Part shown: piece after piece, positions 4,603 to 46,144 of the stretch
Position numbering within the stretch: the first letter of the stretch is position 1
Layout of the letters: every line of letters starts with the position of its first letter
Made by a program: the position numbers and the translations under genes
The notes under the pieces: model-generated
The model's database searches: none
Told to the model about the DNA's origin: nothing
Seen by the model: the letters and a program-made list of their open reading frames with translations, nothing else
DNA from: Escherichia coli
Lineage (GTDB): Bacteria > Pseudomonadota > Gammaproteobacteria > Enterobacterales > Enterobacteriaceae
Assembly: GCF_030384885.1 (NCBI RefSeq)
Contig: NZ_CP128613.1
Strand: one strand, 5' to 3'
Length of the DNA stretch: 64,000 nt

Positions 4603-4631
4603 AAAAGGTCCGATGCCCATCGGACCTTTTT
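4603..4631. terminator. Bidirectional rho-independent terminator between convergent ecdD and ygbN
   Basis: Stem ggtccgat/atcggacc with loop gccc, flanked by AAAA and TTTTT. Confidence 0.7.
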
Positions 4632-10638: not shown

Positions 10639-10688
10639 TGGCCTGCAATAACACCGGGTTACTCATGCTTCACAGAAGAAGCATGAGA

Positions 10689-11345: not shown

Positions 11346-11450
11346 GGTTTTACCCTGTAAAATAAGATTTCCTATTATACAGGGTATTTTTATTTGATTC
11401 GTCAGTTGTCGTTAATATTCCCGATAGCAAAAAACTATCGGGAATTGTTA

Positions 11451-29440: not shown

Positions 29441-29540
29441 TGCCAAACGCCAGATTGCCCGATGTGCTGCGCTTATCGGGCCTACATGTCGCACGAACTA
29501 TGTAGGCCGGATAAGGCGTTCACGCCGCATCCGGCACGTT
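29441..29540. repeat. REP/BIME element cluster
   Basis: Two inverted REP-like palindromes (gccggataaggcgttcacgccgcatccggc type). Confidence 0.7.
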
Positions 29541-36805: not shown

Positions 36806-36892
36806 GTGCCGGATGCGGCGTGAACGCCTTATCCGGCCTACACATGCGCTCCCCGTAGGTCGGATAAGACGCGCCAGCGTCGCATCCGACAT
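36806..36892. repeat. REP/BIME element pair after hypF
   Basis: gccggatgcggcgtgaacgccttatccggcctaca and gtaggtcggataagacgcgccagcgtcgcatccgacat. Confidence 0.7.
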
Positions 36893-42976: not shown

Positions 42977-43336
42977 TTATCCACGTTTCAGTTTAAGCGC
43001 CAATGATAGAGCATTCTGTGATAGTGGATCATGGGGAAAGATCACATCGGGCTGTAAATCAGCAGAATGCATGCCTGTAATTGCGGGAATTTTTTGCGGT
43101 CGGGCGAAGACGGTCAGTCCTTTCATAAACAAGGTGTCGACGATGCGTTGCTGATCGTCCAGCGCGATGGCGACCACGACCCGCGGTTTAAAGCGCCCGC
43201 TGGAACGGCCCACGCCAACCCGCCCTTGCTGGCATAGTGTGTCGAAGGCACGGTTAAAACGAGAAATTTGCCAACCGCCTAAGGCCAGTTGCGCACACCA
43301 GGCGATAACGGCGACGGTGATGAGTGCGGATACCAT
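42977..43336 (-). CDS. gutM: Glucitol operon activator GutM, 119 aa
   Basis: Operon position and size. Confidence 0.85.
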   Translation of the reverse strand: MVSALITVAVIAWCAQLALGGWQISRFNRAFDTLCQQGRVGVGRSSGRFKPRVVVAIALDDQQRIVDTLFMKGLTVFARPQKIPAITGMHSADLQPDVIFPHDPLSQNALSLALKLKRG

Positions 43337-43370
43337 AACTTTTCCTTAATGTAGTGGCGGAAGTCCTGTA

Positions 43371-43435
43371 TGCCTGATGAGCGTAGCGCATCAGGCATTT
43401 TATTAGTCTCGCGGAGATCCTTAACGGATCTCCGC
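43371..43435. repeat. REP-like palindrome plus perfect 10-bp-stem hairpin between srlD and gutM
   Basis: tgcctgatgagcgtagcgcatcaggca; gcggagatcc-ttaac-ggatctccgc. Confidence 0.6.
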
Positions 43436-43441
43436 TGTTAA

Positions 43442-44596
<1,155 letters not shown>

Positions 44597-44606
44597 GTTT
44601 CAGCCT

Positions 44607-46144
<1,538 letters not shown>

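Follow-up and report, generated by a model that had tools for sequence, protein, structure and literature searches.

REP elements lying between cistrons reportedly act as mRNA stabilizers at malE–malF and hisJ–hisQ. In Rho-terminated mRNAs, steady-state 3′ ends lie just past stable stem-loops that lack a U-tract and block PNPase and RNase II, with rut sites and termination itself located downstream of the protective stem, and about 24% of these stems are REPs (Dar and Sorek 2018, PMC6061677; see also Peters et al.). REPs within transcription units are further described as directly involved in Rho-dependent termination (Espeli, Moulin and Boccard 2001, as far as cited by Dar and Sorek 2018). 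Finally, REPs less than 16 nt from a stop codon lower expression of the preceding gene by slowing translation termination and triggering tmRNA-type rescue (Liang, Rudd and Deutscher 2015, in the part quoted by Murashko et al. 2025, PMC12306157).

Here we describe the srlD–gutM junction of the Escherichia coli srl operon, at which a hairpin that is not a repeat (hairpin 1) precedes a single REP. As at malE–malF and hisJ–hisQ, the REP is intercistronic, the upstream segment of the message is the more abundant, and an RNA 3′ end stands at the stem foot, with no U-tract. Unlike in those operons, there is one REP and not a pair or BIME, a second, non-repeat hairpin stands before it, and the genes downstream are the operon's own activator and repressor. 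With the protective stem-loops of Rho-terminated mRNAs the junction shares a U-less stem, an adjoining 3′ end and a downstream sequence with an excess of C over G, and it seems also to share bicyclomycin-sensitive read-through and Rho termination beyond the stem; because it lies inside an operon and not at the end of one, its stem would give a partial, three-fold step and not a full stop. Its position in a transcription unit and the reduced, Rho-involving downstream transcription recall BIME/REP attenuation in the cited account, whereas srl has a single REP and a main Rho signal some 750 nt away. Likewise, a stable stem-loop 7 nt past the srlD stop codon recalls the translation-repressing REPs as quoted, but this near-stop hairpin, 6 nt from the UGA, is not a REP, and the REP itself lies 43 nt from the stop. 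The srl hairpins are within known kinds; they are ordinary, of little importance beyond the locus, and public tables already contain the main RNA measurements. In the accessible literature we found no published discussion of the site, and a search for gutD/gutM gave nothing relevant. With such a junction, one promoter would give a high level of mRNA encoding the sorbitol PTS and dehydrogenase and several-fold less for the activator GutM, the repressor SrlR and GutQ.

Two stem-loops in the srlD–gutM spacer

We analysed a 64-kb stretch of E. coli DNA (hereafter the window; 64,000 nt of contig NZ_CP128613.1, assembly GCF_030384885.1), in which the srl operon occupies the minus strand. A 305-nt query around the hairpins was 100% identical to the RefSeq record of E. 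coli 2013C-4282, which is annotated in the order mltB / srlA-srlE-srlB-srlD-gutM-srlR-gutQ / norR, and the srl open reading frames in the window have the lengths of those in K-12 MG1655. The srlD reading frame (43442–44221, minus strand), so named in the identical RefSeq record, has a translation ending in ...GGQVMF* and a UGA stop codon at 43442–43444. The first downstream regulatory gene is gutM (42977–43336, minus strand), which encodes 119 aa and was assigned from its reading frame, PF06923 (GutM) and the RefSeq annotation. The stop of srlD and the start of gutM are 105 nt apart, and this spacer (43337–43441, minus strand) reads as mRNA UGA-UUAACA-(GCGGAGAUCC GUUAA GGAUCUCCGC)-GAGACUAAUAAA-(AUGCCUGAUG C GC UAC GC U CAUCAGGCAU)-ACAGGACUUCCGCCACUACAUUAAGGAAAAGUU-AUG, with the two stem-loops in brackets.

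Hairpin 1 (43411–43435, minus strand) has a perfect 10-bp stem, a 5-nt loop and a folding energy of about −19.4 kcal/mol; it reads GCGGAGATCC-TTAAC-GGATCTCCGC on the plus strand and GCGGAGAUCC-GUUAA-GGAUCUCCGC in the mRNA, and begins 7 nt past the srlD stop, leaving 6 nt between the UGA and the stem. The REP (43370–43398, minus strand), present as a single copy, also has a perfect 10-bp stem (about −17.5 kcal/mol) that starts 43 nt past the UGA; it reads ATGCCTGATG-AGCGTAGCG-CATCAGGCAT on the plus strand and AUGCCUGAUG-C-GC-UAC-GC-U-CAUCAGGCAU in the mRNA. An A/U-rich linker of 12 nt, GAGACUAAUAAA (43399–43410, minus strand), separates the two and is unpaired in both the minimum free energy (MFE) and centroid structures; no other part of the spacer varies as much among Escherichia alleles, and the linker of K-12 has an indel of 1 nt. 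Past the REP comes the gutM leader (43337–43366, minus strand), in which a C-rich stretch, ACUUCCGCCACUAC, precedes the Shine–Dalgarno sequence AAGGAA (43342–43347). The original prediction had described a REP-like palindrome and a perfect 10-bp-stem hairpin at 43371–43435. Both palindromes are where it put them, although that range clips one base of the REP stem; the perfect hairpin is hairpin 1, and 'REP-like' proved an understatement for a true member of the REP family.

Folded as srl mRNA, the spacer reaches −41.9 kcal/mol, compared with −20.0 ± 2.9 kcal/mol for 200 dinucleotide shuffles (z = −7.4), none of which folded equally well (0/200). Perfect stems of at least 10 bp with loops of 3–9 nt occur at five places in the window, two of them in this spacer and 12 nt apart; first-order Markov simulations gave a mean of 0.69 such stems per window and a maximum of three. 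The other three lie at 4603–4630, 10662–10687 and 11417–11445, and the first of them (AAAAGGTCCGATGCCCATCGGACCTTTT) is flanked on both sides by A- and T-runs, like a bidirectional terminator. The spacer is retained in 5,405 of 5,426 complete E. coli genomes (approximately 99.6%). An Rfam scan of 6.5 kb at a permissive threshold returned a sole match, to the NiCo-AnGGAG riboswitch (RF03164), which fell below the gathering threshold (25.9 bits against 64.5; E = 0.03) and was dismissed as chance.

Two smaller features concern the start of gutM. The MFE fold predicts a weak helix between GGACUUCC (43359–43365, minus strand) and the gutM Shine–Dalgarno region (GGA..AGUU), which could weakly mask the ribosome-binding site; the CUUCC motif is unchanged in 12 of 13 Escherichia alleles. 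Several GutM database entries (P0001, P0002, P0004, P0019 and others) are 134–146 aa long and not 119 aa, and are probably start-codon miscalls, since their N-terminal extensions would be translated through the REP/hairpin spacer.

A REP apparently decayed for mobility

We determined the family membership of the palindrome from its copy number, location, shape and descent. A 35-nt canonical REP allele (AATGCCTGATGCGCTACGCTTATCAGGCCTACAGG) occurs at at least 40 places per genome in 5,425 of 5,426 E. coli genomes, the lowest count being 25. The palindrome thus has many dispersed copies and is extragenic, and the canonical alleles found at this same site (in B2-type E. coli, E. whittamii and others) form the imperfect stem-loop of the family, with a G.U pair plus a C/U mismatch in the stem. 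By definition, a REP is a stem-loop of about 35–40 nt with a stem mismatch (Messing et al. 2012, PMC3479197). In the window allele the G.U pair has been corrected to G–C, and one C/U mismatch remains beside the GC-UAC-GC tip. Folding energies follow this series: the canonical form ending ..GCTTATCAGGCCTAC, found in outgroup Escherichia as well as many E. coli, has −13.2 kcal/mol; strain B-3008, one change away from it, has −15.3 kcal/mol; and the allele shared by the window, K-12 and O157 (...GCTCATCAGGCATAC), with the changes T>C and C>A, has −17.5 kcal/mol, the wobble having gone and two base pairs having been gained.

The foot of the element has changed as well. At 43368–43371 (plus strand) the window carries GTAT, one base off the canonical GTAG that stands at the same site in 9 of 13 aligned Escherichia alleles. 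The REP-associated transposase (TnpA-REP/RAYT) requires the GTAG tetranucleotide, any change of which abolishes cleavage, and binding is lost once the stem mismatch is corrected (Messing et al. 2012, PMC3479197). Because the window copy has lost GTAG and had its stem wobble corrected, it looks immobile by these rules, and we predict that it is inert to the REP transposase. As judged from sequence, the palindrome is a REP that has decayed for transposase recognition, and the E. coli srl REP appears to have been domesticated, losing its mobility signal while gaining stem stability. It is also solitary: the spacer holds a single REP match, unlike a BIME with its pair of inverted REPs, hairpin 1 has no sequence relationship to it, and the nearest other REP-like sequences are at 29506 and 36808. 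These are two further REPs of the GCCGGAT...ATCCGGC type (29506–29535 and 36808–36837), in opposite orientations and unrelated to the srl locus.

[quoted passage not shown]

We searched published E. coli K-12 RNA data for ends at the junction; from the REP up to and including the start of gutM, K-12 does not differ in sequence from the window. Term-seq places a 3′ end with 4,666 reads, classed as 'orphan', at MG1655 2828590(+) (Adams et al. 2021, PMC7815308). This end falls at ...CAUCAGGCAUACA|GG, 3 nt past the last paired base of the REP and 31 nt before the gutM AUG, and by coordinate transfer would correspond to 43367 (minus strand) in the window (Adams et al. 2021, supplementary files 1 and 3). 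The mapped end adjoins the REP and not hairpin 1, at which the Adams et al. Term-seq list has no 3′ end. In the same study, DirectRNA-seq coverage in 800-nt windows was 585 upstream and 197 downstream of the end without bicyclomycin, and 309 upstream and 199 downstream with it (PMC7815308), an approximately three-fold drop across the REP 3′ end that is partly bicyclomycin-sensitive. Northern blotting had shown a transcript of the size of srlAEBD (Maes et al. 2017, PMC5389530). All sequencing data came from uninduced LB cultures in one condition, and describe another strain than that of the window, not grown on sorbitol; the supplements of a SMRT-Cappable-seq study contained no srl entries.

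These data bear out the predicted difference in abundance between the srlAEBD and gutM–srlR–gutQ segments of the transcript, and the published K-12 coverage drop contradicts the opposite outcome, no change across the element. The accompanying idea, that internal stem-loops set relative mRNA stability, is upheld in that an abundance step exists; part of the drop, however, reflects Rho termination further downstream and is not pure differential decay.

Neither hairpin is an intrinsic terminator, because both lack a U-tract: on the mRNA strand, GAGACUAA comes after hairpin 1 and ACAGGACU after the REP. A promoter/terminator scan of the spacer found no promoter-like site and called neither hairpin an intrinsic terminator, and the published intrinsic-terminator score at the REP 3′ end is 1.5, under the threshold of 3 (Adams et al. 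2021, PMC7815308). The steady-state end therefore stands directly after a stable stem without a U-tract, as in protective 3′ stem-loops. After the REP, the plus strand reads TTTTATT (43399–43405), which resembles a terminator for antisense transcription and is probably meaningless; we rejected this candidate as the T-run is particular to this strain and not conserved, K-12 and O157 having TTCTAT/TTCTATT.

We weighed direct attenuation, in which the hairpins would pause RNA polymerase and the C-rich leader would load Rho, causing partial termination at or just past the REP. In its favour, Adams et al. mark the surroundings of the REP-foot end as a 'significant Rho termination region', with a Rho score of 1.9 (just under the guide value of two-fold; PMC7815308), C outnumbers G 1.55-fold on the sense strand over 100 nt (43400 to 43301), and the cited account of Espeli et al. 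gives precedent for REPs acting in this way. The absence of a U-tract from either Escherichia hairpin and the low intrinsic-terminator score speak against it, as does the location of the strongest Rho signal of the neighbourhood, inside srlR at MG1655 2829346(+) (score 3.7, p = 1.7e-18; PMC7815308, supplementary file 2), about 750 nt downstream of the REP and corresponding approximately, by coordinate transfer, to 42611 (minus strand) in the window. Reads there fell from 697 to 76 without bicyclomycin and from 386 to 156 with it (PMC7815308), and the C/G ratio is 1.6–1.9 in the 3′ half of gutM, upstream of this signal. In addition, the untranslated RNA from the REP to the gutM AUG is only 33 nt long, which leaves little room for Rho to load; more than 50 nt are typically required for termination by Rho (Adams et al. 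2021, PMC7815308). We consider direct attenuation at the REP, which would make the 3′ end a site of termination and not a product of trimming, unlikely; it is compatible with, and not exclusive of, a barrier to exonucleases.

A separate site within the operon was seen in the interior of srlA (45889–45912, minus strand), where a short hairpin precedes a T-run (CGTGCATTGGCACG TTTGTCTTTT). It coincides with a K-12 Term-seq end at MG1655 2826058(+) (1,412 reads, classed as internal to srlA), and operon transcripts may be attenuated or processed at this early point.

A probable barrier to 3′-to-5′ exonucleases

The reading we favour, and regard as probable, is that the hairpins block 3′-to-5′ exonucleases, define the stable end of the srlAEBD mRNA and so uncouple the structural from the regulatory genes. 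The causal role of the hairpins is what we infer from the combined evidence. The srl transcript contains two independent stable stem-loops, the Escherichia-specific hairpin 1 and a single, slightly decayed REP, and RNA polymerase would mostly pass both since they lack U-tracts. Of the transcripts that go on into gutM–srlR, some would be stopped by Rho, whose main signal is inside srlR, and others would be cut; decay would thin them further. Trimming by exonucleases, rather than termination at the REP, would create the 3′ end, the product being a stable srlAEBD mRNA that ends 3 nt beyond the REP, and hairpin 1 would probably serve as a second barrier behind it. The outcome would be a message for the PTS and dehydrogenase several-fold above that for gutM, srlR and gutQ. 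REP-containing RNA fragments are known as major targets or intermediates of poly(A)-dependent decay (Maes et al. 2017, PMC5389530).

Hairpin 1 is a single-copy, Escherichia-type stem-loop

Hairpin 1 differs from the REP in being unique. Its 40-mer matches exactly one place, always at srlD, in 5,408 of 5,426 E. coli genomes, and among 92 fetched loci hairpin 1 is limited to Escherichia-type loci: those of E. coli, E. whittamii, two further Escherichia species and one MAG contig labelled Citrobacter, the GutM of which is 98% identical to that of E. coli. In an alignment of 13 Escherichia alleles every cell of the stem (100%) is paired. Variation affects three of the ten pairs, on one side each (G–C to G.U, U–A to U.G and C–G to U.G), and these variants pair in the srl-mRNA sense only; the opposite strand would have A/C mismatches. 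Such one-sided changes hint, weakly, at constraint on the RNA, an outcome expected by chance about one time in eight. A covariation test on the same 13 alleles found no two-sided compensatory changes in either helix; divergence among Escherichia alleles is too low, so that shuffles were uninformative. In E. coli XD35 (NZ_CP089142.1; about 140–267 of locus L089) an IS5-like element, ISEc68, sits within the TTAA loop of hairpin 1 and splits the spacer; disruption of hairpin 1 is therefore tolerated in at least one isolate.

We examined three roles that hairpin 1 might have in its own right. As it starts only 7 nt past the stop codon, it lies inside the footprint of the terminating ribosome, where it might slow termination, trigger tmRNA-type rescue and lower SrlD. 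The 6 nt between the UGA and the stem fit the effect quoted from Liang et al. (2015; in PMC12306157) for REPs close to a stop, and the first hairpin of short-spacer species is similarly placed, 5–9 nt past the stop. However, the published effect concerns REPs, and the REP of srl is 43 nt from the stop; moreover, any protective 3′ hairpin or terminator also sits near a stop codon. We think such tuning of SrlD translation improbable.

A role at the DNA level is also conceivable, with the 10-5-10 palindrome serving as an operator for a SrlR or GutM dimer, or the spacer containing an internal promoter for gutM–srlR–gutQ. Genomic SELEX with RpoD holoenzyme gave a peak in the srlD>gutM spacer and lists a 'gutM-srlRQ' unit (Shimada et al. 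2014), but the peak is given no −35/−10 sequence there and our scan of the spacer found nothing promoter-like. The stem substitutions, which keep pairing in the sense-strand RNA and break the symmetry of the DNA, also speak against an operator. We find this explanation scarcely credible. The operator idea was rejected as unsupported, as there is no GGAGATCC or GGATCTCC half-site near the srlA promoter. The genomic SELEX papers also show an RpoN peak, between srlB and srlD.

The third role would make hairpin 1 a dedicated control point, either as a ribosome-stalling, tmRNA-type tuner of SrlD or as an RNA or DNA site for GutM or SrlR. If so, it would set read-through to the activator and repressor genes, and through this the activator:repressor ratio; we judge this very doubtful.

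Stem-loops of different origin at the same junction

We compared the junction across species. An alignment of GutM was built and 80 loci were fetched from one-genome-per-species bacterial contigs, from which all srlD–gutM spacers were extracted; 78 species-level loci, from Enterobacteriaceae and related families (Hafnia, Ewingella, Serratia), were analysed. A strong stem-loop is present at the srlD–gutM junction in all 78. Taking for each locus the most stable single hairpin of the spacer, the median over the 78 loci is −25.4 kcal/mol, whereas the 60 nt past the gutM stop (the gutM–srlR spacer) have a median of −9.3 kcal/mol and no strong hairpin (paired Wilcoxon p = 1.7e-14, the species not being independent). 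The single-hairpin scan sometimes prefers a long bulged helix to a tight local stem, and its figures are good only for comparing spacer with control; the weakest spacer value, −11.4, is a filter artefact at a locus with a total MFE of −42.8.

The elements that provide the stem-loop differ between genera. Spacers range from 41 to 612 nt, and their sequences are non-homologous between genera. Salmonella has one REP at the junction; Citrobacter, Klebsiella, Raoultella, many Enterobacter and Kosakonia have their own REP type, singly or as an inverted pair; and several Enterobacter, Lelliottia and Huaxiibacter, and also Silvania hatchlandensis, carry a CCCTCTCCC...GGGAGAGGG repeat, which we take to be BoxC-like. 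Short unique hairpins rich in G+C lie in spacers of 41–46 nt in Trabulsiella, Pluralibacter, some Kosakonia and others, and it is in these short-spacer species that the first hairpin starts 5–9 nt past the stop. By regular-expression typing, about 52 loci are REP-like, about 10 BoxC-like and about 16 unique, numbers that are approximate as the typing is crude and a few short unique hairpins are probably mislabelled as REP-like. The unrelated origins of these elements speak for stem-loops having been repeatedly gained or replaced at the srlD–gutM junction, and the 78-species pattern illustrates structure, and not sequence, being kept.

The same turnover bears on whether the hairpins have any selected function. 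The REP could be selfish or neutral, hairpin 1 a relic and the RNA 3′ end incidental; the presence of a REP is on its own no proof of selection, because REPs insert preferentially in intergenic DNA. A family of at least 40 copies, elements that differ by genus in spacers of 41 to 612 nt, as turnover of mobile repeats would give, and the tolerance by XD35 of an IS5-like insertion in the loop of hairpin 1 are all in keeping with this explanation. It accounts poorly for a strong hairpin in 78 of 78 loci, which include unique non-repeat hairpins and spacers of only 41–46 nt, for the lack of a strong hairpin in the gutM–srlR spacer of the same operons, for retention in approximately 99.6% of E. coli genomes and for a REP that lost its GTAG foot while its stem grew more stable. 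We give the absence of a selected function little credence.

In more distant relatives, the junction hairpins of Hafnia psychrotolerans (L085) and Ewingella americana (L086) have a U-rich tail, before position 1495 of the locus, and that of Ewingella also has an upstream A-tract. They look like leaky intrinsic terminators, a terminator-like form that counts in favour of direct attenuation at the junction, and their structure suggests that the ancestral element at the junction may have been a leaky terminator.
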